Notes: generated from the sequence alone by a model not told the origin. 56,057 nt of DNA, filler included, from Jimgerdemannia flammicorona (GCA_003990765.1; 2 parts of 2 records of this genome joined end to end with filler, not necessarily neighbours in it); one strand, 5' to 3'. Shown: positions 1 to 48,637, numbered from the whole stretch's first letter. Numbers and translations are program-made.

Positions 1-69
1 TTTTTTTATAGTCACTTGGACTCCGCCTTTATTACCAGTCTATGAATAAATATACATCATTCCGACCCA

Positions 70-3724: not shown

Positions 3725-3757
3725 ATTGATGATATATGTGATGTTGTCAATCCGCCT

Positions 3758-5782: not shown

Positions 5783-5866
5783 GTTGTTAGTCTCTTTTCG
5801 CTAAAAACATTGTCGAAAGTGCCTTCCAAAGGTTGTGTAACCTGAATGGTACTGGAAAGAGCCGTC

Positions 5867-8800: not shown

Positions 8801-11005
8801 TACACTTAAAGCTTTTGTCAACTGAGTATCTGTCAAGATTATGATAGACAATAGTATCTCAGGCAACTTCATCAATAAAGAAATAGCCAACAGACTCAAG
8901 GTCTTCACCTCTCTGGTATAATAAACTCAAGCAGTTGCCATAGCTGATGGAACCTCACATGTTATTAGCAAGGAAGTCCACAACCTACCCTTCTGAATTG
9001 GTGACTATTGAGTACATATTACCCTCCAGATCATACTACTTCCTGACAATGAAATCATCCTTGGGACTCTATGGTTGAAATAAGAGAACCCCATGATCGA
9101 TTGGGTAAACCATTCTCTGACCATCAAGAAAGGATGCCATAACTTCAAACTGTAAGGCAAAAAGGACCCACTCAACTCTAGTGACCCTGGACCAAAGATC
9201 ACCCACATCAACAAGCTACAACTCAAGAAATTGGTCAAGAAATGCCCTCTCTTTGCTATCTCCATCTGTCCATCCAAAGGAGAACCCAAGAACTCTGAAG
9301 AAGACTTTTCTAAAGTTGACAGCCATATCAGACCCCTACTCCAGAAAGTCCAAGACATATTTCTGAACTGAACCACAGAACCACCTGTACCTGTCATTAT
9401 TAATGACCAAGTAGAATACAAAGTTAAACAAATCCTTAACAAACACAGCTACAAGAACCATCCAAATGGTATAACAACACCAGAACAAATTAGAAGGCTC
9501 TGATGAGGACGTCGAAAGCTAAGAAGGGGAGAGTTATAAGCGCACAACCTCCAAGCTACCAAAATCGCATAGCATCCTCAGAACTAATTTGGAAACCACA
9601 TGTGAGACTACAAAACAAGTTACTGAAGAGATCATCTGATTACACAAAATATGCCAGCAAGTATGAGAATCCACTGCTAAGATACAAGAATACTAGAAGA
9701 AGTACTACAACCATAAGACTGACTCTGAACTGCTATAACTAGTTTGGTTTACAAAAGGAAACCAAAAGTACCAAACTCAAATCGAGATAAGAAGAACTCT
9801 ATCTCATCTACCAAAAGGTTCACAAACTGCACTTATCAACTCAAGATCAAGATATACTACAACTATACAAGACCTCATTACTTAGCAGAAGCAAAATGTA
9901 TTTGAATAACTCTGTTTGCTCTATCTGTGTCATCTCTGTTGGAGAGTAACAGATGCTTCATCTGAACTCAAGAAAGCCAACATCATCGAAACCAATCTCA
10001 AGTCATACACATGACAGATATTACTACTAGAAATTGCCTTGGATTATAGAAAATATTATTTCTGAGAGGTTCAAACCCCCAGCTGTAACATTGGGAGCCC
10101 TTACCCTAGATGAGAATGGCCAGTCCTCACAAATGTGCCAGCAGACTAAAAAAAAAGAGAACCAAGACCTGTTATTCTTGTACAACTACTGCCACCAAGG
10201 ACAGCCTTAATCTTGCAAGAGATAGAAGTAATGACACCTTGAAACTGATGATATCAGAAGTCAGAAAACTGCTCAGACTTTGCTAGTGATAATGTCATCA
10301 ATAGTGATGTCATCAAAGACTAACCAAATAGCACCTAAACCTATAAATAGCTTATCAGTCATAGTATAGTTAGATTAGCCCCATACAATATGACTATAAA
10401 CTGACTCAGCATTCAGATATGTCAGATCACTCTTATACTATGTGACTGTATTCTGACTCAGCAAGGCACTTAGTACTATATCTATATCTAGCATAGTCCA
10501 GATAGCCTCTCACTAGTATAAATACCCCCTTCCACAGATCTCAGAATCTCAGACCTGAACAATCCAAACATAGCCCCTGAGTACTTCCCCACAATATTCC
10601 TTCATATAACTACTCCTAGTATAGCAATATCATGAATAGCGAATAAACCTATTTAATAACCCACAACCCACTCTTAAGTAAATCTACTCTCTATTAGGTC
10701 CCACTTCTAACCCCATCACGAAATTTCCTAATTGGGTATTGTCTGCAGCGATACGCCAATTCAACTAAGCTGGTCTTAGTTTCTTGAACTTTCTAAAATA
10801 CAGAAAATTCTGAATATCCAGAACTAGTCCAAAAAAGGACTTTAGTTGAGATATCAACTCAATCTTGAAATCAATAAGCATAGAGGATGTACTCCATATG
10901 AAATTGATCTTGACCATAAGAAAACAGTCTTTCAGAATATCCAGAACTTTCAGAAAACCCTTCCAGAACTACATAATAGTTACCCTAAAAAGTAACCCTC
11001 TTACA
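5867..11005 (+). mobile_element. Ty3/Gypsy lineage A copy A1: non-autonomous deletion derivative (gag-dUTPase-PR retained; RT/RH/IN deleted)
   Basis: Partial 5' LTR 5867-6140, PBS ~6144, zinc knuckle ~8050-8092, dUTPase ~8170-8577, protease ~8845. At ~9362 it jumps to the pre-chromodomain sequence, and at ~9473 to the pre-PPT sequence. PPT AAGAAGGGGAGAG at 9521-9533. Colinear with 39790-46574. Confidence 0.92.
9535..11005 (+). repeat. 3' LTR of A1 (1471 bp) with a variant U3
   Basis: Starts TATAAGCGCACAACC (TGT>TAT) after the PPT and ends CTTACA. The first ~30 bp and ~10288-11005 match the A2 LTR; the segment between does not. Confidence 0.88.
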
Positions 11006-11148
11006 GCTTGATATAGAGGATATGATCAATACTATGACCCATCAAATCCAAGAACTTCAAGTATAACTAAAATAGCAGAAAACAAGAACTATAAGTACAT
11101 TATATTCTGCTATAGTACTAGTCAGTTTTAAGTTACTTAAGTCAGATA

Positions 11149-20582: not shown

Positions 20583-21582
20583 CACAAGATACAGCCTTTA
20601 TACTCTATGACAGATGTTTGCAGAGAATTCTTCTTTTTTTGAACCTTCGGATTGCAAGGTGCCTCCCTCTCCAAAGAGGATCGTCATCGATGTTCAGTTT
20701 CTTGGTATATTAAGAGGCGTCGAGTTCCGATTGGTGGTCGCTGATGCTTAACACGATCTACCAACATAAATTTTATATATAGCTGCTTGGAGGTAAGTTT
20801 ATTATTCCAAAAGTCTTTAATAGATGCAGTCCATGCCAACACTGAAGACATTGCACCCCATGCGGTTTTTTTTTTCCTGCTCGTGTGATCAGATCGCCGT
20901 TTGTTGGTGATGCGTTATCTCGACCGGGTCGGCGGGGATAAGTGATGATGCCGTGCAGCGGGATTTTGGTGGATATTGTGCGGGGTTGATAGGTAGCATC
21001 TCGTTGCCGACTTCCGCGTGTGTGGTTGAAGAGATGATTGGAAAGAGGCTTTTCAAGAGTAATCAGTCAGTGAAAACGGGGCATCTTGACGAGAATACCT
21101 GTAGGATTTGAAGGTTTGGAAAGTTGATGCAGCAAGCAGTCCTCTGCAGTATATCTGAATCATGAGTTGTCGAACGATCACACGCTAACATCGTAAACCC
21201 GAGCCTTCGTCATAAAAGGATTAGCATCCGCAGGTCGGCATCGATCGGGACCTGGACCGATTCGCACGTGCAGTTTGAGGTGGGCACACAATATGACCAT
21301 AGAGAAGACGAAAGGAAATAATGAAGATTGAGGGAAATGAATTTCAACAGTTTAGATTGAGAGGCTGTCATGAGTTGGCTGTCATGAGTTGAAGTCGGTA
21401 ATTTAATTAGAAGCAGTAATCAAAGAAACAGAACAAGCCCCATCCTCAAATAGAAGTCTTTTTTGGCTCTAAAAATAATCTATACTGCGGTGAGTTAAAA
21501 ATAGCGTGTAAAATGTCTATAAAGTCGGCACAACCCATCGACACGACCAATACACAGCCACACCTCAAAGTTACGCCATAAG

Positions 21583-26866: not shown

Positions 26867-26948
26867 GGGCTACGGGGGTCACCCGTAGCAAAGTGAAAGA
26901 CATTCCCAAATCTCCCCCCTTTGCAACAACACACCCTTTATTCTCACC

Positions 26949-27959: not shown

Positions 27960-27984
27960 GGAGGTCAAAGATTCAAAGGGGGGG

Positions 27985-28084
27985 NNNNNNNNNNNNNNNN
28001 NNNNNNNNNNNNNNNNNNNNNNNNNNNNTTAATTAATTAANNNNNNNNNNNNNNNNNNNNNNNNNNNNNNNNNNNNNNNNNNNN
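27985..28084. other. Artificial 100-bp spacer / contig join
   Basis: 44 N + TTAATTAATTAA (stop in all six frames) + 44 N. Confidence 0.97.
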
Positions 28085-28242
28085 AAAACAAATTTTTTTT
28101 TTTTGTAAAATTTTTACCAAAGGTAGAATTATTATATAAAAAATTATTGGTAAATTTTTTTTTAAAAGCTATTATGATTTTAAAAGTTATAAACTTTTAA
28201 AATCTTGCCTCTAAATATAGGTGCAAAACAGTCAAAGGGATA

Positions 28243-31200
28243 AGTCTTGTATTCTGTGACTTCATATTGACTCAGCTTTATATGCTGTGACTTCAGTTTG
28301 ACTCAGCTTTATGATCTTGCAGGTGATTTTCAGATTTGTTTGGAGGTCACATGTGATTTCAGTGGCTTGTTCAGAGGGTGACATGTGATTTCAGTAGCTT
28401 GGAGGTTGTGTGCTTACAACTCTCCCCTTCTTAGCTTTCAATGTCCTTGTTGGGGCCTTCTAATTTGTTCTAATGTTATTACACTATTTGGGAGGTCAAA
28501 AGTCTAGTGAAGTCCATTTTTCTCAGAAAGCAGCATACTCATAGTACAGTTGCCTAATATGTTGGATTTATATATTAAAGGGTTATGTGTTCAATGCCAT
28601 GTGCTGAAAGTGATTCTGACATCATTCACTGTTGGAGAATTTTCTCTAAGGAATCTTCTTAAATGTCTATGCCTCATTTCCCACCAGTGGTACAGAGAGA
28701 ATAGGCTTGCTTTCAGTTTTGCTATTTTTCTAGAGAGTTGGTATTCTTTGTCTTGTCTTGCTGAGTCCTTGATTTTGTTCATAATAATTATAATATTTGG
28801 AAGAGTAATATATAGTATGTACTGATAGGTGTGGAGTATTTGGTTTTAGTTGTTCAAGGAATTATATTCCTGAACTAAGTCAGTAGCATTCTGGAGGTTG
28901 GTCTTGGGTTCTCAGATTATGTCATAGATTGGGTAACCTTTCTATTTGACAAGATACTCAGGGTGATTCTTGTGGCCACATTTATTGAGGATTTGTTCAA
29001 CTTCGTATTCTTCTTGGTCATTAATAGTGATAGGTGCAGGTGGTTCGGTTGTCTGGTTTGAGAATAGCTCATCATCATTTTCATTGTATCACTTGAGACA
29101 TTAGACATTAAAGACTGGATGGACCTTAATAGTGTCTGGTAGTGCCAATTTGTAGGAGGTCAGAGAGACTTGTGCAATGACTTCAAATGGTCCAATAAAC
29201 TTACTGTTCAGCTTTGTAGATGGTCTGTGTTTGAGGTTGTCAACTTGGTATCCTCAGATATCTAGTAGAACTTTTTCTCTAATATCAAAGATTTCTTCTC
29301 AGTAGTATTGGTTAACATACTGTGACTGTTGTTCTTGAGCTTGTGATAAATTCTCAATTGCAATCTGGCTTAGATTACATATTCAGAGCAGGAATTCTTC
29401 AACAGCTTTGACTGTAGAGAGTTCATTGGTAGTTCAGATAAGTGTCAGAGAGGTGTTTGGGTTTTGTCCAGTGTTGGCAAAGAATGGAGTCATTCTAAGA
29501 GAGGCTTGCTTGCTATTGTTATAGACAAACTTGACTGCAGTAAGGTATTCATACTAATCATCTTATCTGTAGAAAACATAGTTCCTTAGCATTTGTTCCA
29601 GATTTTGGTTCATTCTTTCAGTTTGGCCATCAGTTTTAGGGTAAAAGACTGTAGATAGTGCAAGTTTTGTTCCAAGGTATGCATAGAGAGCTTTCCAAAA
29701 ATGGCTGGTGAATTTCAGGTCTTGATCACTAACAATGATCTTAGAAAGACCGTGATAGCAGAAGATATTGTCAAACAAGAGTATGGCTATGTCTGGTGCT
29801 ATTGCAGTAGTAGTAGTTGGTATGGAGTGGGCTTGCTTGCTGAGATAGTCCACAAAGACAATAATTGTATCTTTCCCATTCTTGGTTTGGGGTAGTTGTA
29901 CAATGAAGTCCATAGAGATTTGTTCCCAATTAGTGGATAGTACTGGGATAGGGTAGAGTAAGCCAGGTTTTGCTAGTGTTGAGGACTTGTTTCATTAGCA
30001 GGCATCACAGGAAGTAATGTAGGTCTTTAGCTAATCTGCCATGCAGGGCCAATAGAAGTTTTAGGAGATAACTTCATAGCATTTGTCAAATTCTAAATAT
30101 CCAGTGGTAGGGATATCATGACATTCAAATAAGATAGTCCTTTGAAGGTCTCAGTTGTTTGGAACATACAGTCTGTCCTTGTAATAGATGGTATTATTTT
30201 TGAGTTGGTATTGGTTGTACTGGGTATACTTATTAGTATCATTACTATTTAGGATTTCTCAGAGTGCTTGAGCTTCTTTATCATCAGCACATACTGTGAT
30301 AATTTGTTCCATGATAGTGTTGGTAACCAAGGTGAGAGTTTGGATAACTTCTTCAATGAATAGTCTGAAGATTGCATCAGCAACAATGTTTTTCTTACCA
30401 GGGTGATACTGAATTTTGTAGTCAAAGTTGGTGAGAACTTTCATCTATCTGGCTTGCTTTTGAGAAAGGGTAACCTGTGTTTTGATGTTGACTAATGACT
30501 TGTGGTCAGTCAATACAATAAAGTGTGCTCTTTTTAGATATAGTCACCATTTGATCAGAGTGTCTACGATGGCTAACATTTCCTTCTTGTGAGTTGCATA
30601 GTTGATTTCAATATTATTGAACTTGTGGGAATGGTAGGCCACAGGGTGTCCTTCTTGCATGAGTACTGCTCCAAGGGCTAGGTTGGAGGTATCAGTAGTA
30701 ACTTCATATGGTAGAGCAGAGTTTGCTGCTTGAAGTACTGGAGTAGTTATCAAGATATCTTTCAATGCTTGAAAGGCTGTATCTTGTTCAGATCTCCAAT
30801 TTATAAGATTGTTGAAGTCTTTTTCTTGTTTTATGGTCTAGAGCTGTTCTTTTTTCTTGCTATGCTTGGTTATTTGGATGAGGACAGTAGTAATCTTAGT
30901 GAAGTTAGCAACAAATTGCCTGTAATAATTTGCTAATCCCAGGAATGACTGGAGGTCTTTCAGCTTCTTGGGTCTGGGCTAATTCTTGATTACAGAGATT
31001 TTGCTGAGGTCTACTTTGATTCTATTTGGTGTGACGATGTATCCAAGAAATTGAATTTCCTTCAGGAGGAATTCACACTTGCTGAGTTTTGCAAAGAGTT
31101 GGTTTTCTTGGAGTTTCAGTAGTATATACTAGTTTGAGGTATTCAAGATGTTCCTCCAGGGTTTTACTGAAGACTAGGATGTCATCAATATAGATAATAA

Positions 31201-34200
31201 TGAATTTATCTAGGTATGGGTGCAGAATAGTATTCATCAGGGTCTGGAAAGTTGCTGGAGCATTAGTTAAGCCAAAGGGCATAACCAGAAATTCAAAATG
31301 TCCATAGCGAGTTTGGAAGGCTGTCTTGTAGTTGTCTTCTTCTTTCATAGCAATTTGCCAGTAATTATTTTGTAGGTCAAAAGAGCTTATAAATTGTAGG
31401 TTGGTAAGTCTGTCAAATATTTCATTGATTCTGAGTAGTGGGCAACAGTTCTTGATGGTCTGTTCATTGAGATCTCAGTAATCAATACACATTTATAGGT
31501 CTTCTTCTTTCTTGACAACAAAGAGGACTGGTGTACCATAAGGTGATATACTGAGTCTGATGAATCCTTATTCTAGGAGTTTGTCAATTTCTTTCTTGAG
31601 TATATTGATTTCTCTCAGAGACATATGGTAGATTGACTTGAAGGCTGGCTTGGCATCTGAAATGATCTTGATGGCATAGTCTACTGCTTGTTTAGGAGAT
31701 AGGCCTTTCAGAAGTTTCTTTGGGAATATGTTTCGAAATTTCTAGAGTAGTGGTCTGACACAGCTGTCAACTTTAGAAAAGTCTTCTTCAGAGTTCTTGG
31801 GTTCTTCTTTGGATGGTTAGATGGAGATAGCAAAAAGAGAACATTTCTTGGCCAATTTCTTAAGCTATAGCTTATTGATGTGAGTGATCTTTGGTACAGA
31901 GTCACTAGAGCTGAGTGGGTCCTTTTCACCTTGCAGTTTGAAGTTGTGGCATCCTTTCTTGATGGTTAGAGAATGGTTTACCCAATCAATCATAGAGTTC
32001 TCTTGTTTTAACCATGGAGTTCTAAGGATGATTTCATTGTTTGGAAGTGGTACAATTTGAAGGGTAATATGTACTTGGTAGTCACCAATTTGGAAGGGTA
32101 GGTTGCAGACTTCCTTGCTAATGACATGTGAGGTTCCATCATCTGTAGCAACTGCTTGAGTTTGTTGTACCAGAGAGGTGAAGACCTTGAGTCTGTTGGC
32201 TATTTCTTTATTGATGAAGTTGCCTGAGGCACCACTGTCTATCATAATCTTGACAGATGCTCAGTTGACAAAAGCTTGAAGTGTAAGCAGTTTGTCTAAT
32301 CCAATAGTAGTAATTTCAGTTGTAGGAGCTTTTCTTCTATTGGTTTTTCTTTGAGCCAGTTCATTGACACAAGAGAAGTAATCATCAATCATTCAGGAAG
32401 AGTATATTCCAATATCATGGGGGCATCAGCCACTTGGTATATATCTATCTTCAATTTTCTTGTAGAATTATTCTTCTTTGTTCACAGTAGGTTGGGCTGG
32501 GGTCTTGTTTGATGAGCCAAATCCTTTGGATCCTCGGATGGTAGACAGTAGTTCAGGGACTTCCTTGACTATCAGGGTTGACTCGATTTTTTCGAATAGG
32601 ATCTAGGCAATGTAAAAACCTATAGAGATCTTAAAAGGTGTCTAACTGTAGTTTTGGATAAGGACAATGATTTTGCCTGTATAATCCTTGTCAATGACTC
32701 CTCCTTCTACTGAGAGTCCTTTTAATGCTAGGCTGCTACGATAGCATATTCTTCCAATATGTCCTTCAGAGATTTGGATACTGATTCCTATATAGACTTG
32801 CTTGACTTCTTAGTTGGAAACTGTAGCTTCTTCAGCTGCATATAGGTCATATCCAGCTGCCTTTTGACTTCCTTTGGTTGGGGTCTTAGTAGTTTGTCTT
32901 AACTTGACAAAGTCCAGTATTCTGGTGATCAGGTTATTGAGGTGGTGCAGAGTAGTAACAGTTGCTCATTTTGCTGTTCGGGGTTTTCGGTTGGAGTAGG
33001 CACTGGCCATATGTCCTGTCTTTCAGCAATAGAAGTATGCTCCACTTCTTTGAAGTTCATTCCTTTCTCCTTCAGTGAGTTTCTTAAAGGTACTCGGCTG
33101 GATGGGTTCATGATTTCTGGGTGTCTATGAGGTAGATGTAGAGGGAGCTTAGGATGCATCATGCTTGGGTTCTTCTTTCTTAGTCCAAGTCTTTTCCTTG
33201 TTATTGAATTGTCTTCAGGGCAGAATTGGTCCAGCTGTTAGAATTCACTTAACCATAGTCTTGATTCTTGCTGGACACTATTGTTGGTGATCACAATCAA
33301 CTGGGCGGCCTTGTTCTTGAATTTTTCTCATAAGCCATTCAGGTAGGATATTGAATAAATAGTCTGCTCTTATACAATTTCATACTTCATCATTGGCAAT
33401 ATATCCTAGACCAATAGTGTTCAGGAGTGACTCGAGTTTTGTACAGAAAGTTTCAAATTCTTCCTTGCTATATACATTGAATTTGAGGTTACAGAGTTTT
33501 ACTTGAGATTCAGCAATCATAGTTTCACTGTGGTATTGGGCAATTATAAGTTGTTTGAGTCCAGAGGCTGCAGGATGGGCTCCATATCCTGGGGCATTGT
33601 TTGCTATATTCTGGGCAACTACTGCAGGTCAGGTATCCTATGTGAGGGGTTTTTCAGGAAGGGTTCACCACCATTCTTCAGCAGGTCCTCAAAAGAATAT
33701 AACAACTTGACAAACATAGGCTGTAGTTATAGTAAAGAGTTGTTCCAGAGTGTGGTCTTGATTGTTTATCAGAAGACAGTCAGCAACTCGCTCATTGGTC
33801 CATTGATTGGCTTCAAAGTTGGTGTCAACTATACTAATGAAGCTTTGGACTTCTTGTGCAGTACCATTGAAGGTAGGTAGGCTCAGATTTTTGGTAGGTC
33901 GGGTCTGTTCGGCTAAGGTAGTAATGGTTGCTGCCATTATGGCTATCTGGGCTGTGAGGTCTAAAATCTGTTAATTCATCATGTTGTTTACTGGAGGTGG
34001 TTGGACTGCTGGTAGTGGTGTTATTAGTACTACTTGAGGTACTGGTGCAGAGTGTGATGGTGTTCTTTGAGTCTGTGTAAGTTGCTGGAGTAATAGTTGT
34101 GGGTCTGGAGTAAAGGCTTAATAAATAGCTATCTGTTGCTATATAGGTGTGTTCTGTCCTGATGGAAGTACATCACCTTCTGTGGTATATCTAGGATTGA

Positions 34201-36498
34201 ATTCACTGAGATACTCCTCCTCCTCTTTGGTTTGGTCCCTGTATAGTTGGGTTTGCTCAGCATCAAAGTAGATAGAATCAGTTATATATCTGATTTTGGA
34301 TGGACTTAATTCAAAGTCAAGTTCTGGTTCAGTGTTGGTTTCAGATTCAGATAGAGTAGTAGCAGAACTTGCTTCTGGTTCAGGGTCAGATAGTTGATGA
34401 AGAGTTTCTCTTACTTCTTCTTTAAGAATATGGCAGGCCTTACTGTTCTGGAATCAGTAGTATAATACAGTCTTGGTCCTGGTATGGTAAAAGTCAGTAG
34501 AGTTGAGCCACTTAGCTACAGAGGCTTGGGCTTTGTGAGGGACTAAGGCTAGAAAGACTGCTGATGGTTGTCCTAGATCACTCAGATTTGTAGAGCTGAC
34601 AAAACTTTTGTTGAGAAGAGTAAAGAAGACTTCTATAAGACCTTCTTTGTCTTGACTTGCTGAGTGTAGAGCAAGAAGTTCGGTAAATAGGATTTTACCT
34701 ATCTGCTGATTTAATCAGAGTACTTCTTTCTTTGAGTGAAGTTTGTCCCACTTGTTGCAGGTGTGGAGGTCAAATTGTCCTTATATGTCAGGTTCAATTT
34801 TCTCTAGATTGTCAGATGATTCAGGATAAATTCCAGTTCAGAGGTTGGGCTTTATACCAACTTGTAGGAATTCTCAGAGGGGTTTGTAGCAGGGTGAGAA
34901 AGTATCTTAAAGTAGAATTGGATTATAAACTGCTGCTACTAAGTTGTAAGAGAGTTGTTTTTTAGAATAATCATTATGTAGTTCTGAAAGGGTTTTCTAG
35001 AAGTTCTGGATATTCTGGAAGACTATTTTCTTATGGTCAAGATTAATTTCATATGGAGTATGTCCTCTATGCTTATTGATTTCAAGATTGGGTTGACATC
35101 TTAATTAAAGTCCTTTTTCAGACTAGTTCTGGATGTTTAGGATTTTCCATATTTCAGGAAGTTCAAAAAACTAAGACCAGCTTAGTTGAATTGGCATATT
35201 GCTGCAGATAATACCCAATTAGGAAATGTTATGACAGGGTTAGAAGTGGGACCTAACAGGGAGCAGATTTACTTAAGAGTAGTTTATGGGTTATTAAATA
35301 GGTTTATTCGCTATTCATGATATTATTATACTAAGAGTAGTTATATGAAGGGATATTGTGGGGAAGTGCTCAGGAGTTATGTTTGGATTGTTCAAGTATT
35401 CAAGTCTGAGATTCTGAGATCTAAGGGAGGGGGTATTTATACTAGTGAGGGGCTATCTGAACTATGCTAGATATAGATATAGCACTTAGTGCCTTGCTGA
35501 GTCAGAATGCAGTCATATAGTACAAGTGTGATCTGATATATCAAGAGATCATCTGACTGCTGAGTTAGTTTACAGTCATATTATATAAGACTAATCTAAC
35601 TATACTATAACTGTTAGGCTATCTATAGATTTAGACACTGTCTGGGTAGTCTTTAATGACATTACCATCAATGGCATCATCTCTGGTCTAGGAAGAGTGG
35701 TTTGCAGATTACTTCTCCTTATTCACTGAGGTAATAATATATAAGGACTTTGTCATCATCCCACAGGATAGCATCATCTGTCTCATATGCTAGATAAGGT
35801 GTTGGTGAGTAAAGAAGAAGTACATCATCTTTGCTTTCATCAGATTCACTGTCTGCATACCTTCTATAGATTACAGCACTATAAGTTGTAGGGTTGTAGT
35901 AAGCTGGTGGCTGTGGTTCATATCACTCATACTCAGGTGGTGGAGTGGTTGGTTCAATCTCGAGGGTTGTCTGAAGGTACAGGTTGTGTTCTTCTATCTC
36001 TTCATTGTAGTTAAAGTAATTGGGGGTAAATGCAAGTTGGTATTCATGCCAGTAGTCATTGTTCCAGTAGGTCTCGTAGGTAGTTATAAACTGTTGCAAG
36101 TTCATTGGTAAGGTTGGTGGTGTGATCAGGGTTGGTAGAGATTCTTGGCTGGAGGTCATATTGGTATCAGAGGGATTATTGTCTTCTGCTTCATCTTCAT
36201 CGAACCAGATTATATTGTAGACATCCTTCATAATATATCCAACTTGAGGCATTTGTAGAACATAGTCATTGGGGTGCAGGAAGGTTCTGTCTGTGGTCTG
36301 GACATATTCAAAATACTTGTGGTTGAGTTCTTGTATCATGTTATCGATTTGGCCATAGGATAGGGTGGCAACCATTTTGCTGGTAGTAACTCAGAGATAG
36401 AAAATAAAGGTGCTGTACTCATAGAAGAGTTCTCAATGTTTGCAGGCAATGAGTTTCTGGTATTGAGACATCTGAGTAATATCTGTATCATGATGGTG
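28243..36498 (-). mobile_element. Gypsy lineage A copy A3: complete internal region, both LTRs truncated, heavily mutated
   Basis: 5' LTR remnant 34945-36498, PBS ~34930-34941, then gag, dUTPase ~32515-32915, PR (IDSGASGNFI), RT ([10 protein letters not shown]), RH, IN, chromodomain ~28860-29010. PPT 28420-28432, 3' LTR remnant 28243-28418. Confidence 0.94.
35632..36498 (-). pseudogene. C-terminal part of the LTR-encoded accessory ORF in A3
   Basis: 35923-36375 (MVATLSYGQID...EIEPTTPPPEYE) matches 38631-39085 and spans the A2 5' LTR frameshift in a single frame. Confidence 0.8.
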
Positions 36499-38001
36499 TT
36501 TTTTTTTTTTTTTTTTTTTTTATAGTCCCTTGGACTCCGTCTTTATTACCAGTCTATGAATAAGTATACAATATCACCACCCACTATCCAATCCCCATCA
36601 GGGGGCCCCTCCCCACCTCTTCACGTATAAAGACTACCCTCTCACCAACAACTCCAACTCTCCCACCACTCTGACCACAGATTTTCACCACCAAGCGGTG
36701 CCTCCGACCCCTCTGTAGCCCCCAACCAAGCCACCAGCCTGTCAAGGTATCCTCCATAAGGAACTACCACTATGATAACCAGCTCCCCAAGCTCTGTCGC
36801 CTCTCCTCCTCAAATACAAATAGCCAGTGACCGGCCAGCCCAACCCAAATAGCCAATGTCCAGCCTAGAGTAATCTACTCTTCCCCTACCCCTCCTATCA
36901 ATCGATCCCTCAGGTCCTCCCACCTCCCCTGTACATCATCACCCCTACATCTTACCCCCAAGCAGTCCCCAATGGCCTGCCAAAAGTCTCCCAACACCTC
37001 ACACTCCCCTAGCCAATGTTCTGGCATCTGTACAAATCCCCCTTTCTGCCCTACATTATGGCACTCTTTGCAGTCAAAGTAGCCCCCTACAACAAGGTGT
37101 CCTGAGCAGAAGTTAAGCATCACATTCCTCCTCAGCACATACCACCAGACTACCCAGTACTTTAGCAGTATCCAATTTTTCACTGTGGCACTCCAGGTCC
37201 AAACCCCATACCAGTCCCACTCCTCACCAATTCCAACTCCTTGCCAACCACTAGGCCACAGATCCTGGCCTAGTCCCCTTTGGCATTTAATGCCATCACT
37301 AATATTGAACTCCAGTAAAGGCATGCCTCCCAGAAGAATGCTATCTCATCTCCACATCGCCGGGCCCCAAGCCCTCTCCCCCTCATCCCCTCACCAGCGA
37401 ATACCAATGCGGTGTGCCCCCTCGGCTATCCCCCACCAGAAGCCTTTATATCTCAGTTGCGTAGTATTCTGGAGCCCAACTAATGAAAGAAGATCACCAG
37501 TCAAGCCTCTTGGTGATGTCTGCCTCTCCCATATCTTCTGCAGCAGGGGAACCCAGCCCCCTCCATGCAACTCCACCACCCTCCTCAGCCACCAAGCCCT
37601 CAAGCAGTATAGTCTTTTGGGGAAGTCCACCAGCCCAAGACCACCTCTCACCACCAGTAGGGACAAAGTCTGCCAACCAATCTGACTCTGTCTGCTAGCC
37701 CAAATCCATCTCTTGGCCACCTTCATCAATCTCTTCACCACCCAGGCTGGGAAGTCCAGATGATAAGCCAAATACCACAGCTTTGGCAGCCAGTATACAT
37801 TCAAAATTGAGATCCTTCCTGCCAGAGAGAAGTGTCTACCCCCTCAACCCCATAGGTCCTCCTCCCAAAATCCAATCCTCTGCTCCCACTATAGCTTGGG
37901 CAAAACAGACCCATATACTGACAAATAGATACCCAAGTACTACACTGCCTCTCCAGTGGGGACAATTGTTCCAATAACTTCCCTGCCCACCAGGCCATTG
38001 C

Positions 38002-40068
38002 TGTAAGCGCACAACCTTCAAGCCACTGAAATTACATGTCACTCTCTGAACAAGCCACTGAAATCACACGTGACCTCTGAACAAATCTGGAAATCACCTG
38101 CTTGATCACAAAGCTGAGTCAAACCGAAGTCACAGCGCACAAAGCTGAGTCAATACAAAGTCACGGAACACAAGATTTACACAAATAGAATCTTACTAAT
38201 CAGGACCAAATGCGTATATACCAAGCACCAAGATGCATCGAATCAGAGAACCAAAACAAACAACAACCACAACTTCCAAATACACAAATATGACCACTGA
38301 GATCTACAACCGTATCCATACTGATATTTGGAATGCCATTGTCAACTGAGCCACACCCCCTCTGCCCCTTATGAATATCCATAGCCTGGCACCCCTCTAC
38401 TTTGTGGAAGCCCGATGGAATGCCCTGAATATGCTTAGCGAGGCCCACCGAATCGGACAAATCTCAAGCTACTACCAGATTGGCCGCCTCCTGGAAGACA
38501 TGGTCAAACACCACTATGATACAGACATTACCCAGATATCTCAACACCAGAAGCTCATCGCCCGCAAATATCGAGAACTCTTCTATGAGTACAATACCTT
38601 TATTCCCCGCCTCCGAGTCACTACCAGCGAAATGGTTGCTACCCTGTCCTATGGCCAAATCAATGATATGATACAAGAACTCAACCACAAGTACCTCGAA
38701 TATGTGCAGACCACAGACAGAACCTTCCCACACCCTGATGACCATATCCTCCAAATGCCTCAAGTCAGATACACTATGAAGGACGTCTATGATATAATCC
38801 ACTTCGACGAAGATGAAGCAGAAGACAATGATCCCTCTGATGCTGATATGACCTCTAGCCAAGGATCTCTGCCAACCCTGATCACACCACCAAACTTGCT
38901 AATAAACTTACAACAATTCATATGTAACTGCATATGAGACTTATTGAGACAATGACCACTGGCACAAATACCAACCCATGTTCACCCCCGACTATTTCAA
39001 CTATAATGAAGAGACCAGAGAACACAACCTGTACCTCCAGACAACCCTCGAGATTGAACCAACCACCCCACCACCTGAGTACGAGCAACATGAACCACAG
39101 CTACCAGCTTACTACAATCCTGCAACTCATAGTGCTGTAACCTATAGAAGGTATGCAGACAGTGAATCAGATGAAAGCAAAGACAATACACCCATCCTTT
39201 GCCCACCAACATCTTATCCAGTCTATGAGACAGATGATGCTATCCTGTGGGATGGAGATGAAGTTCCAATGTATTACTACCTTAGCAAACAAGGAGAAGT
39301 AGTCCGCAAACCACTCTTCTTAGATGACTACTTTATCAGAGATGATGTCATTGATGGTGATGTCATCGAAGACTACCCAGATAGCGCCTAAACCCATAAA
39401 TAGCCTAGCAGTCATAGTATAGTTAGATTAGCTTTGTATGATGTGACTGTGAACTAACTCAGCAGTCAGACAATCTCTTGACATGTCAGATCACACTTGT
39501 ACTATGTGACTGCATTCTGACTCAGCAAGACACTTAGTGCTACATCTATATTCAGCATAGTCCAGATAGCCCCTCAATAGTATAAATACCCCCTCCCCCA
39601 GACCTCAGAATCTCAGACTCGAACATACAAGAACATCCCTGAATACTTCCCCACAATATCTCTTCACACAACTACTCCTAGTATAGCAATATCATGAATA
39701 GCAAATAAATCTATTCCATAACCCACAAACCACTCTTAAGTAAATCTGCTCCCTGTTAGGTCCTACTCCTAACTCCATTACAAAATTTCCTAATTGGGTA
39801 TTGTCTGCAGCGATATGCCAATTCAACTAAGCTGGTCTTAGTTTCTTGAACTTTCTGAAATATGGAAAATCCTGAACATCCAGAACTAGTCCAAAGAAAG
39901 GACTTTGGTTGAGACGTCAACCCGAACTAGAAATCAATAAGCATAGAGGATGTACTCCATACGAAATTGATCTTGACCATAAGAAAACAGTCTTCCAGAA
40001 CATCCAGAATATCTAGAAAACCCTTCCAGAACTATATAACAGTTACTCTAAAAAGCAACCCTCTTACA
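38002..40068 (+). repeat. 5' LTR of A2 (2067 bp)
   Basis: Direct repeat of 46575-48637. It is 4 bp longer because of an insertion at ~38921-38925. TATAAATACCCC at 39581. Confidence 0.96.
38290..39391 (+). pseudogene. LTR(U3)-encoded accessory ORF, 5' LTR copy; unknown protein
   Basis: ATG 38290 (MTTEIYNRIHTDIWNAIVN), a CGA>TGA stop at 38347, and a 4-bp insertion frameshift near 38923. It ends ...EDYPDSA*. Confidence 0.8.
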
Positions 40069-40071
40069 ACT

Positions 40072-40083
40072 TGGTAGCAGCGG
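40072..40083 (+). promoter_or_regulatory. Primer binding site, probably initiator tRNA-Met
   Basis: TGGTAGCAGCGG lies 3 nt after the LTR. It is one mismatch from the complement of the common eukaryotic iMet 3' end (TGGTAGCAGAGG). Confidence 0.75.
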
Positions 40084-40189: not shown

Positions 40190-43100
40190 GAACCATCTGA
40201 CAATCTGGAGAGAATTGAACCTGATGTACAAGGACAATTTGACCTCCACACCTGTAACAAGTGGGATAAACTTCATTCAAAAAAAGAAGTACTCCGGTTA
40301 AACTAGCAAATAGGCGAAACTCTATTCACCGAACTCCTTGCACTACACCCAGCAAGTCAAGATGAAGAAGGTCTTATTGAAGCCTTCTTTACTCTTCTCA
40401 ACAAGAGTTTTGTCAGCTCCACAAATCCGAGCGACCTAGGACAACCAGCAGCAGTCTTTCTAGCCTTAGTTCCTCATGAAGCCCAAGCCTCTGTAGTCAA
40501 GTGGCTCAACTCTACTGACTTCCACCATACCAGGACCAAGACCACCTTATACTACCGATTCCAGAACAGCAAGACCCGCCATATCCTCAAAGAAGAAGCA
40601 AGAGAAACCCTTCATCAACTACCTGACCCTGAACCTGAAGCAGGCCCTACTACAGCCCTACCTGAATCTGAAACCAATACTGAACCTGAACTTAACTTTG
40701 AATTAAGTCCATCTGAAATCAGATATACAACTGATTCTGTCTACTTTGATGCCGAGCAAACCCAATTACACAGGGACCAAATCAAAGAGAAGGAGGAGTA
40801 TCTCACTGAATTCGATCCCAGATATACCACTGAAGGAGACGTACTTCCATCAGGACAGAATACACCTACACAGCAACAAACAGCTATCTATCAAGCCCTC
40901 ACTCCAGATCTACAACTACTACTTCAGCAACTTACACAGACCCAAAGAACTCCATCACACTCTACACCAGTACCTCAAGTAGTACCAGTAACACCACTAC
41001 CAGCAGTCCAACCACCTCCAGTAAACAACATGGTGAACCAACAGATCCTAGACCTCATAGCCCAAGTAGCTATAATGGTAGCAACCATTACTGCCTTAGC
41101 TGAACAGACCCGACCTACCAAAAATCTGAGCCTACCTATCTTCAATGGTACTGCACAAGAAGTCCAAAGCTTCATTAGTGTAGTTGACACCAACTTTGAA
41201 GCCAATCAATGGACCAATGAGCGAGTTGCTGACTGCATTCTGACAAACAATCAAGACCACACCCTAGAACAACTCTTTGCTACCACTACAGCCTATGTCT
41301 ACCAAGTTGTTACATTCTTCTGAGGACCTGCCGAAGAATGGTGGTGAACCCTTCCTGAAAAACCCCTCACATGGGATACCCGACCTGCAGTAGTTGCTCA
41401 GAATGCAGCAAACATGCCCCAGGATATAGAGCCCATCCTGCAGCCCCTGGACTCAAATAACTCATAATTGCTCAGTATTGCAGTGAAACCATGATTGCCA
41501 AATCTCGAGTAAAACTCCACAACCTCAAATTCGATGTACATGGCAAAGAAGAATTTGAAACCTTCTGTACAAAACTCAAGTCACTCCTGAACACTGTTGG
41601 CCTAGGATACATTGCCAATGATGAAGCACGAAATGGTACAAGAGCAGACCATTTATTTGATGCCCTGCCTGAATGGCTTACTAGAAAAATCTGAGAACAA
41701 GGCTGCCCAGTTGGTTGTGATCACCAACAATGGTGCCTAGCAAGAATCAAGACCATGGTCAAGCGATTCCTAACAGCTGGACCAATTCTGCCCCAAAGGC
41801 AATTCAACAACAAGGAAAAGAATTGGACCAAGAAAGAAGAACCCAAGCATGAAGCATCTCGAGCTCCCTCCACATCCACCTCTTGGACACCCAGAAATCA
41901 TGAACCCACCCAGCCAAGTATCTTCAAGAAACTTACTGAAGGCGAAAGAAATGAACTTCGAAGAAGCGGAGCATGCTTCTATTGCCGAAAGACAGGACAC
42001 ATGGCCAGTGCCTGCCCCAACTGAAAACCCTGAACAGCAACATGAGCAACTGTGACCACTCTGCACCACCTCAACAACCTGACCACCAGAACACTGGACT
42101 TTGTCAAGTTAAGACAAACTACTAAGGCCCCAACTAAAGGAAGTCAAAAAGCAGCTGGATATGACCTGTATGCAGCCGAAGAAGCTACAGTTTCTAACCA
42201 AGAAGTCAAACAAGTCTATACAGGAATCAGTATCCAAATCCCTGAAGGACATGTTGGAAGAATATGCTGTCACAGCAGCCTAGCACTGAAAGGACTCTCA
42301 GTAGAAGGAGGAGTCATTGACAAAGATTATACAGGCAAAATCATTGTCCTCATTCGAAACCACAGTTGGACACCCTTCAAGATCCCTATTGGCTTCTGCA
42401 TTGCCCAGATCCTATTTGAAAAAATCGAGTCAACCCTGATAGTCAAGGAAGTCCCTGAACTACTGCCCACCATCTGAGGATCTAAAGGATTTGGCTCATC
42501 AAACAAAGCCTCAGCCCAACCTACCATAAGCAAAGAAGAACAATTCTACAAGAAGATCGAAGATGGATATGTACTAAGTGGCCGATGCCCTCATAGTATT
42601 AGAATGTACTCTTCCCGAATGATTGATGATTGCTTCTTTTGTGTCAACGAACTGGCTCAAAGAAGAACCAACAGAAGAAAGGCTCATACAACTGAAATCA
42701 CCACCATTGGATCAGACAAACTGCTCACCCTTAAGGCTTTTGTCAATGGAGCACCTGTCAAGATTATGATAGACAGTAGTGCCTCAGGCAACTTCATCAA
42801 TGAGGAAACAGCCAACAGACTCAAGGTCTTCACCTCCCCAGTACAGCAAACTCAAGCAGTTGCTATAGCTGATGGAACCTCACATGTTATTAGCAAAGAA
42901 GTCCACAATCTACCCTTCCGAATTGGTGACTACCGAGTACATGTTACCCTCCAAATTGTACCACTCCCTGACAATGAAATCATCCTTGGGACTCAATGGT
43001 TAAAATGAGAGAACCCCATGATCAATTGGGTAAACCATTCTCTGACCATCAAGAAAGGACACCACAACTTCAAACTATAAGGTGAAAAGGACCCACTTAC

Positions 43101-46100
43101 CTCTAGTGACTTTGGACCAAAGATCACCCATGTCAACAAGCTATAACTCAAGAAATTGGCCAAGAAATGCCCTCTCTTCGCTATCTCCATCTGACCATCC
43201 AAAGGAGAATCTGAGAACTCTGAAGAAGATTTCTCCAAAGTTGACAGCCATGTCAGACCACTACTCCAGAAATTCCAAGACATATTCCCAAAGAAGCTTC
43301 CGAAAGGCCTACCTCCCAAACAAGCAGTAGACCATGCAATCAAGACTATCCCAGATGCCAAACCAGCCTTCAAGTCAATCTACCACATATCTCCAAGAGA
43401 AATTGATGCACTCAAGAAGGAAATCGACGAACTTCTGGAACAAGGATTCATCAGACCCAGTGTATCACCCTATGGTACACCAGTCCTCTTCATTGTCAAA
43501 AAAGAAGGAGACCTGCGAATGTATATTAACTACCGTGATCTCAATGAGTAAACCATCAAGAACTGTTGTCCACTACTGAGGATTGATGAAATATTCGATA
43601 GGCTCACTAACCCACAATTCATAAGCTCCTTTGACCTGCGAAATGGTTACTGGCAAATTGCCATGAAAGAAGAAAACATCTACAAGACAGCTTTCCGAAC
43701 ATGCTATGGATACTTTGAGTTTCTAGTTATGCCCTTTGGCTTAACTAATGCTCCAGCAACCTTCCAGACACTGATGAATATCATTCTGCATCCATATCTG
43801 GACAAATTCATTGTTGTCTACATTGACGACATCCTAGTCTTCAGCAAAACCCTGGAGGAACATCTTGAACACCTTGAACTAGTACTACTGAAACTCCGAG
43901 AAAACTGACTCTTTGCAAAACTCAGTAAGTGCAAATTTCTTCTGAAAGAAATTCAATTCCTTGGACACATTGTCACTCCAAATGGAATCAAAGTGGACCC
44001 CAGCAAAATCTCTGCAATCAAAGATTGGCCCACACCCAAGAAGCTGAAAGACCTCCAGTCATTCCTGGGATTAGCAAATTATTACAGGCGATTTGTTGCC
44101 AACTTTGCTAAAATTGCTACTGCCCTCACCCAAATGACCAAGTACAGCAAGAAACAAGAACAACCCTGGACCATGAAATAAGAGAAAGACTTCAACAATC
44201 TTGTAACATGGGGACCTGAACAAGATACTGCCTTTCAAGCACTGAAAGATGCCCTGATAACTACTCCAGTACTTCAAGCAGCAAATTCTGCCCTACCATA
44301 TGAAGTCACTACTGATGCCTCTGACCTAGCTCTTGGAGCAGTGCTCATACAAGAAGGACACCTTGTGGCCTATCACTCCTGCAAGTTCAATGATGCCAAA
44401 ATCAACTACGCAACTCATGAGAAGGAAATGCTAGCCATCGTAGACACTCTGATCAAATGGTGACCATACCTAGAAAGAGCACACTTCACAGTATTAACTG
44501 ACCACAAGTCATTAGTCAACATCAAGACACAGGCTACCCTTTCTCGAAAGCAAGCCAGATGGATGAAAGTCCTCACCAACTTTGACTATGAAATCCAGTA
44601 CCACCCTGGCAGGGAAAATATTGTTGCCGATGCCATCTCCAGACCACCAATCGAAGAGGTTATCCAAACTCTGACCTTGGTTACCAACACTATTATGGAA
44701 CAAATTATCACAGTATGTGTTGATGATAAAGAAGCCCAAGCACTCCGAGAAATCCTAAACAGTGATGATGCTGATAAGCATACCCAGTACAACCAATACC
44801 AACTCAAGGACAATACTATCTACTATAAGGACAGACTGTATGTTCTGAACAACCGAGATCTCAGAAGGGAATGTCATGATGCCCCTACAGCTGGACATTT
44901 AGGATTTGATAAATGCCATGAAGTTATCTCCCGAAACATCTATTGGCCCTGTATGGCAGATCAGCTCAAAACCTATATCACTTCCTGTGATGCCTGCCAA
45001 CGAAACAAGTCCTCAACACTAGCAAAACCCAGCTTACTCCACCCTATTCCAGTACCATCCACAAATAGGGAACAAATCTCTATGGACTTCATTGTACAAC
45101 TACCCCAAACCAAGAACGGAAAAGATGCAATTGTTGTCTTTGTGGACTACCTCAGCAAACAAGCCCACTTTGTGCCTATTATCACTACTGCAACAGCACC
45201 AGACATAGCCACACTCTTGTTTGACAACATCTTCCGCTATCATGGTCTTCTTAAGATCATTGTTAGTGACCGAGATCTGAAATTCACCAGCCACTTTTGG
45301 AAAGCCCTCCATGCACACCTTGGAATAAAACTTGCACTATCCACAGCCTTTCATCCAGAAACTGATGACCAAACTGAAAGAATGAACCGAACTCTGGAAC
45401 AAATGTTAAGGAACTATGTTTCCTACAGAAAAGATGACTGGTATGTACACCTCACCGCAGTTGAGTTTGCCTACAACAATAGCAAGCAAGCCTCTCTTGG
45501 AATGACCCCATTCTTTGCCAACACTGGACAAAATCCAAACACCCCGCTGACACTTATCCGAACCATTGAAGAACCCTCTACAGTCGAAGCTGTTGAAGAA
45601 TTCTTACTCCGAATGCGCAATTTAAGCCAGATTGCCATCGAGAATCTATCGCGAGCTCAAGAACAACAATCACAGTATATTAACCAACACCACCGAGAAG
45701 AAACTTTTGATATTGGAGAAAAAGTTCTACTGGACATCAGAGGATACCGAGTTGACAACCTCAAGCACAGACTATCTACGAAGCTGAACAGCAAGTTCAT
45801 TGGACCATTTGAAGTCATTGCACAAGTCTCTCCAACCTCCTACAAACTGGTGCTACTGGACACCATTAAGATTCACCCAGTCTTTAATGTTCAATGTCTC
45901 AAGTGATACAATGACAATGATGACGAGCTATTTCCAAATCGGACCACCAAACCACCTGCACCTGTCATTATTAATGACCAAGAAGAGTATGAAGTTGAAC
46001 AAATCCTCAACAAATGTGGCAACAAGAACCATCCTGAGTACCTTATCAAATGGAAAGATTACCCAATCCACAATACAACCTGGGAACCCAAGACCAATCT

Positions 46101-46150
46101 CCAGAATGCTACTGACCTAGTTCAGGAATATGATTCCTTGAACAACTAGA
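40190..46150 (+). pseudogene. Single gag-pol frame: Gag (CCHC) - dUTPase - CPH/CxxC motif - protease - RT - RNase H - integrase - chromodomain
   Basis: CFYCRKTGHMASAC ~41973; AGYDL, EGGVIDKDYTG and GFGSS at 42090-42500; IDSSASGNFI 42770; VYIDDIL 43816; IN HHCC and DDE at 44870-45400; YEVEQIL...YLIKWKDY ~45988. ORF pieces from 41491 to 45906 share one frame. There is a 1-bp loss near 41413. Confidence 0.93.
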
Positions 46151-46560: not shown

Positions 46561-46573
46561 AAGAAGGGGAGAG
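46561..46573 (+). promoter_or_regulatory. Polypurine tract
   Basis: AAGAAGGGGAGAG immediately before the 3' LTR; identical in A1 and A3. Confidence 0.92.
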
Positions 46574-46574: not shown

Positions 46575-48637
46575 TGTAAGCACACAACCTCCAAGCCACT
46601 GAAATTACATATCACCCTCTGAACAAGCCACTGAAATCACACACGACCTCTGAACAAATCTGGAAATCACCTGCTTGATCATAAAGCTGAGTTAAACCGA
46701 AGTTACAGCGCACAAAGCTGAGTCAATACGAAGTCACAGAATACAAGATTTATACAAACGGAATCTTACCAATCAGGACCAAATGCATATATACCGAGCA
46801 CCAAGATGTATTGAATCAGAGAACCAAAACAAACAACAACCACAACTTCCAAATACACAAATATGACCACTGAGATCTACAACTGTATCCGTGCTGACAT
46901 TTGGAATGCTATTGTCAACCGAGCCACACCCCCTCTGCCCCTCATGAATATCCATAGCCTGGCACCCCTCTACTTTATGGAAGCCCGATGGAATGCCCTG
47001 AACATACTTAGCGAGGCCTACTGAATCAGACAAATCTCAAGCTACTACCAGATTGGCCGCCTCCTGGAAGACATAGTCGAACACCACCATGATACAGACA
47101 TTACCCAGATGTCTCAACACCAGAAGCTCATTGCCCGCAAATATCGAGAACTCTTCTATGAGTACAATACCTTTATTCCCCGCCTCCGAGTCACTACTAG
47201 CGAAATGGTTGCTACCCTGTCCTATGGCCAAATCGATGATATGATACAAAAACTCAACCACAAGTACCTCGAATACGTACAGACCACAGACAGAACCTTT
47301 CCGCACCCTGATGACCATATCCTCCAAATGCCTCTAGTCGGATACACCATGAAGGACATCTACGATATAATCCACTTCGATGAAGATGAAGCAGAAGATA
47401 ATGATCCCTCTGACACCGATATGACCTCTAACCAAGGATCTCTACCAACCCTGATCACACCGCCAAACTTGCCAATAAACTTGCAATAGTTCATAACTAC
47501 ATACGAGACTTATTGGGACAATGACCACTGGCATGAATACTAACCTGCATTCACCTCTGACTATTTCAACTATAATGAAGAGACCGGAGAACACAACCTG
47601 TACCTTCAGACAACCCTCGAGATTGAACCAACCACCCCACCACCTGAGTACGAGCGACATGAACCACAGCTGCCAGCTTACTACAATCCTGCAACTCATA
47701 GTGCTGTAATCTATAGAAGGTATGCAGACAGTGAATCGGACGAAAGCGAAGACAATACACCCATCCTTTGCCCACCAACACCTTATCCAGCCTATGAGAC
47801 AGACGATGCTATCCTGTGGGATGGAGACGAAGTTCCAATGTATTACTATCTCAGTGAACAAGGAGAAGTAATCCGCAAACTACTCTTCTTAGATGACTAC
47901 TTTATCAGAGATGATGTCATTGATGGTGATGTCATCGAAGACTACCCAGACAGCGCCTAAACCCATAAATAGCCTAGCAGTCATAGTATAGTTAGATTAG
48001 CTTTGTACAACGTGACTGTAAACTGACTCAGCAGTTAGACGATCTCTTGACATGTCAGATCACACTTATACTACATGACTGCATTCTGACTCAGCAAGGT
48101 ACTTAGTGCTATATCCATATTCAACATAGTCCAGATAGCCCCTCACTAGTATAAATACCCCCTCCCCCAGACCTCAGAATCTCAGACTCGAATATACAAG
48201 AACATCCCTGAATACTTCCTCACAATATCCCTTCACACAACTACTCCTAGTATAGCAATATCATGAATAGCAAATAAACCTATTCCATAACCCACAAACT
48301 ACTCTTAAGTAAATCCACTCTCTGTTAGGTCCTACTCCTAACCCCATTACGAAATTTCCTAATTGGGTATTGTCTGCAGTGATATGCCAATTCAACTAAG
48401 CTGGTCTTAGTTTCTTGAACTTCCTGAAATATGGAAAATCCTGAACATCCAGAACTAGTCCAAAGAAAGGACTTTGGTTGAGACATCAACCCAAACTAGA
48501 AATCAATAAGCGTAGAGGACGTACTCCATATGAAATTGATCTTGACCATAAGAAAACAGTCTTCCAGAACATCCAGAATATCTAGAAAATCCTTCCAGAA
48601 CTACATAATGGTTACCCTAAAAAGCAACCCTCTTACA
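46575..48637 (+). repeat. 3' LTR of A2 (2063 bp)
   Basis: TGTAAG...CTTACA, followed by the TSD ATTGC. Confidence 0.96.
46863..47960 (+). pseudogene. LTR(U3)-encoded accessory ORF, 3' LTR copy, 365 aa when repaired
   Basis: 1098 nt from ATG to TAA with no frameshift. Three stops (47022, 47487, 47541) are sense codons in the 5' LTR copy. Confidence 0.82.

Follow-up and report, generated by a model that had tools for sequence, protein, structure and literature searches.

A candidate accessory gene within the long terminal repeats of a Ty3/gypsy chromovirus

The long terminal repeats (LTRs) of retrotransposons are treated as non-coding control regions, and both annotation pipelines and estimates of element age assume that they evolve neutrally. 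Among retroviruses, genes encoded in the 'unique 3′' (U3) part of the LTR are familiar, namely sag of mouse mammary tumour virus (MMTV) and nef of human immunodeficiency virus (HIV). Can a retrotransposon carry such a gene as well? The question is raised by A2, a Ty3/gypsy chromovirus contained in a stretch of 56,057 nucleotides (filler included) from GCA_003990765.1, the whole of which is called 'the window' below. Both LTRs of A2, and what remains of an LTR of its relative A3, hold the same long reading frame. Because its codon usage, a diverged but open relative and synonymous variants in other samples all point to a genuine element-borne coding sequence, this frame very probably represents a real protein-coding gene; the gene belongs to the retrotransposon, and it sits in the LTR. 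The LTRs of A2 and the copies of the frame are located as follows.

38002..40068, + strand: 5′ LTR of A2, 2,067 nt, with TG...CA ends (self-BLAST; target-site duplication)
46575..48637, + strand: 3′ LTR of A2, after the polypurine tract (PPT) at 46561-46573 and before the target-site duplication ATTGC at 48638-48642 (self-BLAST)
46863..47960, + strand: LTR open reading frame (ORF), 3′ LTR copy; 365 codons in one frame, with TGA54, TAG209 and TAA227
38290..39391, + strand: LTR ORF, 5′ LTR copy; TGA20, TGA218 and a frame-shifting 4-bp insertion at 38921-38924
35637..36501, − strand: LTR ORF in A3, lacking codons 1-72 (LTR truncation at 36501), with 4 stops and an 11-bp deletion near the C-terminus

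In both LTRs of A2 the frame of 365 codons occupies LTR bases 289-1390, and it lies wholly within the LTR. The first-pass annotation of this DNA had reported the same frame in the two A2 LTRs and in that of A3, which holds, the A3 copy being present only from codon 73. It had also proposed that an intact ancestral frame of 365 codons could be rebuilt from copies whose lesions differ. This proved correct: the three copies carry nine in-frame stops at nine different codons, none of them common to two copies, and every one is a single transition away from a CGA, CAG, CAA or TGG codon seen in another copy. The 4-bp insertion is missing from contigs of other samples (X2 contigs; X1/X2 loose ends). 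Stops common to all copies, which the same annotation had named as evidence that would count against a gene, number zero in the ORF frame of the window copies, compared with 13 and 24 in the other two sense frames and 2, 17 and 20 in the antisense frames.

The usage of codons within the frame is that of the element. A per-codon score derived from the codon frequencies of A2 gag-pol reached +0.23 for the ORF frame, with −0.23 and −0.04 for its off-frames; the corresponding values for the integrase were +0.285, −0.24 and −0.09 (the integrase belongs to the training set, which somewhat flatters its own score), and the LTR outside the ORF scored approximately 0 in all frames. The frequency of G at third positions is 0.13 in the ORF and 0.08-0.15 in the genes of the element, as against 0.22 and 0.30 in two host ORFs (a thin comparison, consisting of these two ORFs).

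Homologues of the predicted protein were sought in 5.8 billion protein clusters (similar-length and shorter) and, without regard to length, in 1.84 billion representatives. Two relatives, P0002 and P0003, were accepted, and both are open. P0002 (247 aa, aligned with ORF residues 115-364) displays 165 identities over 250 positions (66%) and 205 positives, with two in-frame gaps of two residues each, and it has Q at both of the 3′ LTR stop positions that fall within its aligned part. More than half of its residues that are unlike any window copy (36/69) are conservative replacements, where random missense mutation would be expected to yield ~33% (p 0.0006-0.002). The chance that a neutral sequence would stay open at the divergence of P0002 is ~0.007-0.02, a biased estimate, since protein sets take only open frames. 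P0003 (128 aa) corresponds to the N-terminus, and at least one window copy matches it at 124 of its 128 positions. The length-free search of representatives returned six matches at E values up to 0.001, of which these two alone were accepted: P0005 and P0007 were set aside as repeat or low-complexity proteins, and P0004 and P0006 were rejected from the match table alone, in which they appear as 18 and 9 short stretches within proteins of 2,635 and 1,958 aa. Two scans of metagenome contigs for the DNA of the relatives gave 74 and 339 pattern matches, none of which was confirmed.

A further line of evidence is provided by variants from other samples, considered here as the 40 best supported of 473 over the whole 5′ LTR stretch. 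Fifteen of those 40 fall inside the ORF, and 12 of these are synonymous and at third positions (p 0.0003 for the third-position excess against an expectation of one-third); the remaining three change N to D, V to M and V to I.

The copies in the window are themselves mute on selection, because decay resembling repeat-induced point mutation (RIP), in the form of C-to-T change, swamps the signal. Between the two A2 LTRs (93.5% identical in a self-comparison of the window), 2,064 aligned sites show 131 differences, of which 129 are transitions and 2 transversions; the fraction of differing sites is 0.39-0.54 at CpG, 0.13-0.15 at CpA/TpG and 0.04-0.05 elsewhere. The near-exclusive C-to-T and G-to-A change in repeats that typifies RIP is therefore present (129 versus 2), but the CpA preference of Neurospora-type RIP is not, and the pattern is nearer to that of CpG-directed deamination. 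The decay of the copies is RIP-like or methylation-driven C-to-T mutation, and all of the window copies were inactivated after insertion by RIP-like mutation of this kind. The dN/dS comparison recommended by the first-pass annotation accordingly turned out to be uninformative on these copies: with pN/pS (the ratio of nonsynonymous to synonymous differences per site) computed on transitions, and the A2 5′ and 3′ LTRs compared as the neutral reference, the value was 0.58-0.60 for A2 versus A3 and 0.55 for the neutral pair. As a separate observation, the differences of the LTR pair within the ORF are distributed over codon positions 1, 2 and 3 as 25/8/39, where dinucleotide context predicts 30.6/14.6/26.8 (p 0.009); such a coding-like pattern in a place where neutral decay is expected might be explained by gene conversion with other copies as donors or by wider sequence context.

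The product of the ORF is an orphan protein. No Pfam family exceeded threshold (DUF6827 at E 0.037 and Complex1_49kDa at E 0.17 were the only sub-threshold matches), a PDB profile search gave 0 matches, and tblastn against the window returned the ORF's own copies and no paralogue; gag is unrelated. A fragment of gag or pol, the trivial identity that had been considered at the outset, is thus not what the frame encodes. AlphaFold modelling from a three-row alignment gave a predicted local distance difference test (pLDDT) score of 31.2. In the ESM Atlas, the N-terminal piece fell among mixed unnamed clusters at 0.93, under the recognition bar, and P0002 had no feature match, with template modelling (TM) scores of at most 0.30 and an Atlas model of pLDDT 0.39.

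The protein had been described on first inspection as having a helical N-terminal region of ~170 aa and an acidic tail rich in Y and P. The tail is plainly present: residues 171-365 contain 23.3% D+E, 3.1% K+R, 9.3% Y, 10% P and three W, and the product as a whole has a net charge of −44. The helices, in contrast, appear (in residues 3-141) only in the very low-confidence model. Conservation of the acidic C-terminal half extends to P0002 in successive blocks; this speaks for a fold or binding motifs, and against a tail that is simply acidic. Acidic activation regions are acidic stretches studded with bulky hydrophobic and aromatic residues, and the composition of residues 171-365 is of this type; no DNA-binding or recruiting domain was found in the protein by Pfam, the ESM Atlas or the PDB profile search. 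Inspection of the printed protein sequence by eye, with no predictor run, disclosed no hydrophobic stretch.

How might such a frame be expressed? Two promoter-like modules flank it in the LTR.

38019..38220, + strand: upstream module P1; 24-nt repeats at 38019-38074, 31-nt tandem repeats at 38107-38168 and TATATA at 38215-38220
39422..39709, + strand: downstream module P2; repeats at 39422-39527 with TGACTCAGC sites, TATAAA at 39581 and AATAAA at 39704

The first-pass annotation had placed the ORF upstream of the canonical LTR TATA box and behind a TATATA of its own, preceded by short repeats, and both placements were borne out: the TATAAA/AATAAA pair of P2 is 3′ of the ORF (the ORF ends 190 nt before the TATAAA), and direct repeats of 24 and 31 nt precede the TATATA, which is at LTR base 214; from there it is 70 nt to the ATG at 38290. 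Each 31-nt repeat of P1 holds one TGACTCAGC site in reverse orientation, so that these sites are 62-93 nt before the TATATA; those of P2 are 55-118 nt before the TATAAA, which is itself separated from the AATAAA by 123 nt. The first P2 site reads TAACTCAGC in the 5′ LTR and is intact in the 3′ LTR (at 48024), and an intact LTR has two TGACTCAGC sites before each TATA box. The motif, which we take to contain an AP-1/Gcn4-type core, occurs 11 times in the window, where 0.66 occurrences would be expected, and 11/11 lie in LTRs of the A2 family. Read in this way, P2 would be the promoter and terminator of the genomic RNA, and because it has the canonical layout of U3, R (repeat) and U5 (unique 5′), the ORF is most simply placed in U3; on this arrangement of motifs, the gene probably lies in U3 rather than in R. 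The chances that it possesses a promoter of its own appear to be roughly even.

The ATG at 38290 has an A at −3, and only one other ATG follows the TATATA before it. That upstream ATG, at 38233, is in frame, 19 codons before the start of the ORF and 13 nt past the TATATA; in the 3′ LTR copy (46806 on) it is followed two codons later by TGA, and P0003 begins at the downstream ATG. In two small runs from one coded organism, X9 and X15 (guessed, no more, to be RNA), contigs cover 39620-39892 at a depth of 645-6,828 and the remainder of the LTR beyond it at 72-633, whereas depth does not exceed 251 over the ORF and falls almost to 0 within the A2 interior; this depth may reflect a related repeat that shares only the R-U5 segment, rather than a map of transcripts.

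The explanation favoured here, which on balance seems somewhat probable as a whole, is that of a real LTR-borne accessory gene, located by anatomy in U3, expressed from a short mRNA of its own and encoding, as the best guess, a trans-acting regulator. With the gene wholly inside the LTR, each new insertion would have two copies of it, and a solo LTR would keep one. The short mRNA would start ~30-70 nt past the TATATA, employ the ATG at 38290 and end at the poly(A) signal of the LTR; it would be held within the LTR because RNA from P1 would meet that signal after ~1.45 kb. In the genomic RNA the gene would be present solely in the 3′ untranslated portion, and in this form it would be inherited. 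The product would then act in trans on the element, for example as an activator-like factor working through the shared bZIP-type sites, although an activator-like role, as suggested by these sequence features, is in itself rather unlikely. Somewhat less doubtful, if still tentative, is the broader notion of the LTR as a self-contained cassette (enhancer repeats, TATA box, ORF and its own poly(A) signal) for a trans-acting controller of the family, which might be an activator, a copy-number sensor or an anti-silencing factor.

Several observations weigh against this explanation. Every copy of the ORF in the window carries lesions and none is intact, and inside the window there is no sign of selection. 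Just two relatives were found in ~15 billion proteins, both of them fragments on ~1-kb contigs, and their openness is partly a condition for entry into protein sets. Measured against the decay baseline of the window (46-53% third positions), the third-position excess of the listed variants is significant only at p 0.007-0.03. An AATAAA lies inside the ORF itself, at 38901, and P1 could be a distal enhancer of the main promoter, not a promoter. An LTR of the relative A1 is without the gene, which is perhaps dispensable in cis. Finally, no fold was obtained, and the ideas of a 'helical domain' and of an 'activator' are drawn solely from composition.

Four other accounts of the locus can be set against these same data. 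The most direct challenge to placement in U3 would assign the gene to an R region of ~1.45 kb: genomic RNA would start behind the TATATA at 38215, and the ORF would be its first cistron, in the manner of ORF0. It is true that the first TATA box is found as early as LTR base 214, and that the rice element Retrosat2 is described, in the available part of the source (PMC3485330), as having a short U3 with a TATA near base 230, an R of 2,023 bp and an extra ORF0 upstream of gag-pol. Such an RNA, however, would present scanning ribosomes with a block of 365 codons and many more ATGs before gag, and read-through of a poly(A) signal located 1.45 kb from the cap would not, as a general principle, occur in the 5′ LTR; together with the 123-nt spacing of TATAAA (39581) and AATAAA (39704), which is that of a canonical U3/R/U5 layout, this makes the long R improbable. 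Nor is it much different with expression from a spliced subgenomic RNA, as for MMTV sag and HIV nef, in which a leader exon from the main LTR promoter is joined just before the ORF in the 3′ LTR. This is the usual route for the 3′-terminal accessory genes of complex retroviruses, but it would require here an intron of ~6.5 kb, far beyond the usual sizes in fungi, and a TATA box is already present 70 nt upstream of the ORF's ATG; splicing of this kind is accordingly regarded as more improbable still.

The remaining accounts deny the frame a function, or even a product. It could be a functionless passenger: a gene captured from the host or from a foreign source, or else a former internal ORF3 that the LTR engulfed when plus-strand priming shifted upstream. 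The protein has no detectable family, the LTR of A1 does without the gene, and in plant and rotifer elements it is common for extra ORFs to follow pol, ahead of the 3′ LTR, according to the parts of two reports that were available (PMC7264820, PMC5408684). Codon usage and third positions nevertheless match the element and not the two host ORFs, no host paralogue was met with in the window or in the protein searches, and in a lineage whose protein has diverged by 28-34% the frame has remained open and shows conservative replacements; a passenger is thus about as improbable as a long R. Least plausible by far, to the point of being very nearly dismissed, is the idea that there is no sense-strand gene at all, and that the frame arose by chance from base composition or is the shadow of a real antisense feature. 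One antisense register (register 0) does have only two stops common to all copies, at codon columns 59 and 343, and a codon score of +0.08 to +0.21. The sense frame has none over 365 codons and the top codon score, both database relatives are sense-frame proteins, and coding strands that are poor in T and avoid TTA, CTA and TCA usually leave the antisense frame nearly open, which is probably what is seen here. The antisense register was noted at 38467-38898 and 47445-47879 on the minus strand.

If the favoured explanation of an LTR-borne accessory gene is adopted, the closest counterpart in layout is MMTV sag, which is likewise an ORF of ~320-365 codons inside U3, in an LTR of unusual length, so that each provirus has two copies of it and the genomic RNA carries it in its 3′ untranslated part. 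The proteins are unlike: there is no Pfam or PDB relation, the ORF product is highly acidic, and whereas MMTV Sag is a type II membrane glycoprotein, no hydrophobic anchor was seen by eye here. The setting also differs, with a probable fungal host and a Ty3/gypsy chromovirus that lacks env. A functional and speculative likeness may be drawn to Tas (Bel1) of foamy viruses and Tax of human T-cell leukaemia virus (HTLV), in which a 3′-terminal accessory gene with its own promoter yields a product that feeds back on the LTR; the pair of modules sharing one motif and the acidic, aromatic-rich tail are alike in layout, but there is no homology, no DNA-binding domain was found, and the A2 gene is entirely inside the LTR.

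The ORF also recalls the additional ORFs (aORFs) of LTR retrotransposons, which, as far as the available portions of the literature describe them, are lineage-restricted, of unknown function, faster-evolving than pol and confined to some families. Those that are described there lie either upstream of gag, after the 5′ LTR, or downstream of pol, before the 3′ LTR. The classes aORF-5 and aORF-3 are defined by an internal location, preceding gag or following pol, and the present ORF, lying inside both LTRs, belongs to neither. The accessible text of PMC7264820 reports plant extra ORFs before gag or after pol and does not use the wording 'in the LTR' or 'within the LTR'; the corresponding parts of other reports describe bdelloid elements with an ORF3 (PMC5408684), the ORF0 of Retrosat2/RIRE (PMC3485330), variation of <200 bp in the U3 of crapaud with no ORF mentioned in it (PMC10787394) and additional domains only in nested 'complex' elements (PMC3248453). 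In fungal chromoviruses, the available part of PMC2864245 notes a dUTPase in elements of Postia, Phanerochaete and Tuber, and the legend of its Fig. 3 refers to an 'add. ORF' of unknown function. These elements resemble A2 in combining a chromodomain integrase with a dUTPase in the polyprotein, but no LTR-borne ORF is reported for them in that portion. Within the partial texts consulted, the literature search found no retrotransposon with an ORF inside its LTR, the place of the 'add. ORF' of PMC2864245 not being seen there. The position inside the LTR is a novel departure from the known theme of additional ORFs.

The remaining features of A2 and of a shortened relative complete the picture of the element.

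40072..40083, + strand: primer-binding-site (PBS)-like TGGTAGCAGCGG, 3 nt past the 5′ LTR, direct reading
40307..46149, + strand: A2 internal region; gag with CCHC knuckle, dUTPase, protease, reverse transcriptase (RT), RNase H, integrase and chromodomain, in frames broken by stops
9535..11009, + strand: 3′ LTR of A1; 50 nt from the LTR start and 740 nt from its end, with ~690 nt of unrelated non-coding DNA in between

The LTR of A2 begins with TG at 38002 and ends with CA at 40067-40068, the true edge being one base earlier than the BLAST edges; a 5-bp target-site duplication (ATTGC at 37997-38001 and 48638-48642) flanks the element, and the PPT, AAGAAGGGGAGAG at 46561-46573, ends one base short of the 3′ LTR. 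Pfam recognised in the interior zf-CCHC, dUTPase (3.6e-30), gag-asp_proteas, RVT_1 (1.1e-24) and RT_RNaseH_2 and, in the C-terminal part, Integrase_H2C2, rve, SH3_Tf2-1 and Chromo (5.7e-16). Because this domain set, the LTR ends, the target-site duplication, the PPT and the PBS are all present, and with protease, RT, RNase H and integrase in that order and a chromodomain at the C-terminus, A2 is a complete Ty3/gypsy chromovirus (Metaviridae). The dUTPase domain (42046-42477) lies between the CCHC knuckle and the protease, and the gag region opens with a stretch of 338 aa (40307-41323) that contains a Q/P/T-rich part and has no Pfam match. The closest full-length pol proteins found were ~53% identical; named relatives at 32-54% identity include Haematococcus, Planoprotostelium, Microbotryum and others, the closest of them being algal and amoebozoan (41-54%). 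Of the earlier label 'fungal chromovirus', then, the second word is established by the Pfam domain order, and the first is only likely, on the strength of the 129:2 ratio of transitions to transversions and of a neighbouring ORF that resembles an AA11 lytic polysaccharide monooxygenase (LPMO), a family that is fungal. That ORF (26889-27959) has a single exon, a signal-peptide-like start followed by His, a match to AA11 LPMO (PDB 7p3u, 5e-15) and a third-position GC content of 0.82; after it, runs of N at ~27980-28085 mark an assembly gap.

A3 lies on the minus strand at 28240-36501, with its 5′ LTR cut at the point equal to 38506 and its 3′ LTR reduced to 178 nt. A1 (5867-11009) is a relative with an internal deletion, and its 3′ LTR retains only approximately the last 20 codons of the ORF. 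The ~690-nt replacement in that LTR partly resembles 19168-19469 (78%), and, the 5′ LTR of A1 being truncated, it may date from before or from after insertion. A2 itself is inserted in a repeat that resembles a long interspersed nuclear element (LINE) and has endonuclease and RT matches; the empty site is spanned by contigs from a soil run (loose ends at 37999 and 38001), and a contig of run X9 departs from the window sequence exactly at 38002. The LINE-like repeat is present on the minus strand as two copies that are ~80% alike, at 1-4190 and at 36515-37999 plus 48638-51310 (the second interrupted by A2), and its + strand has a very strong GC skew (−0.35 to −0.51). Elsewhere in the window, 22098-23039 is a protein-kinase exon (Pfam PK_Tyr_Ser-Thr, 1.6e-20) whose match begins at profile position 62, the start of the domain being absent from the exon, and a candidate ORF upstream of it (21523-21963) has no Pfam match. 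Rfam and tRNA scans of the window found nothing.

If the gene were a dead passenger, it would be a curiosity of one family. A conserved LTR gene, on the other hand, would mean a doubled dose per element, a working gene in each solo LTR and a part of the LTR that is under protein-level selection, and its orphan product, a new protein, may influence transcription of the element or silencing by the host. If the LTR is the self-contained cassette considered above, solo LTRs would go on expressing the gene long after the body of the element was lost, and no LTR-borne accessory gene would have been described before it in a fungal retrotransposon; it would be an independent counterpart of the retroviral U3 genes. 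A conserved LTR gene would also show that a 'complex' organisation with U3 accessory genes has arisen outside the retroviruses.

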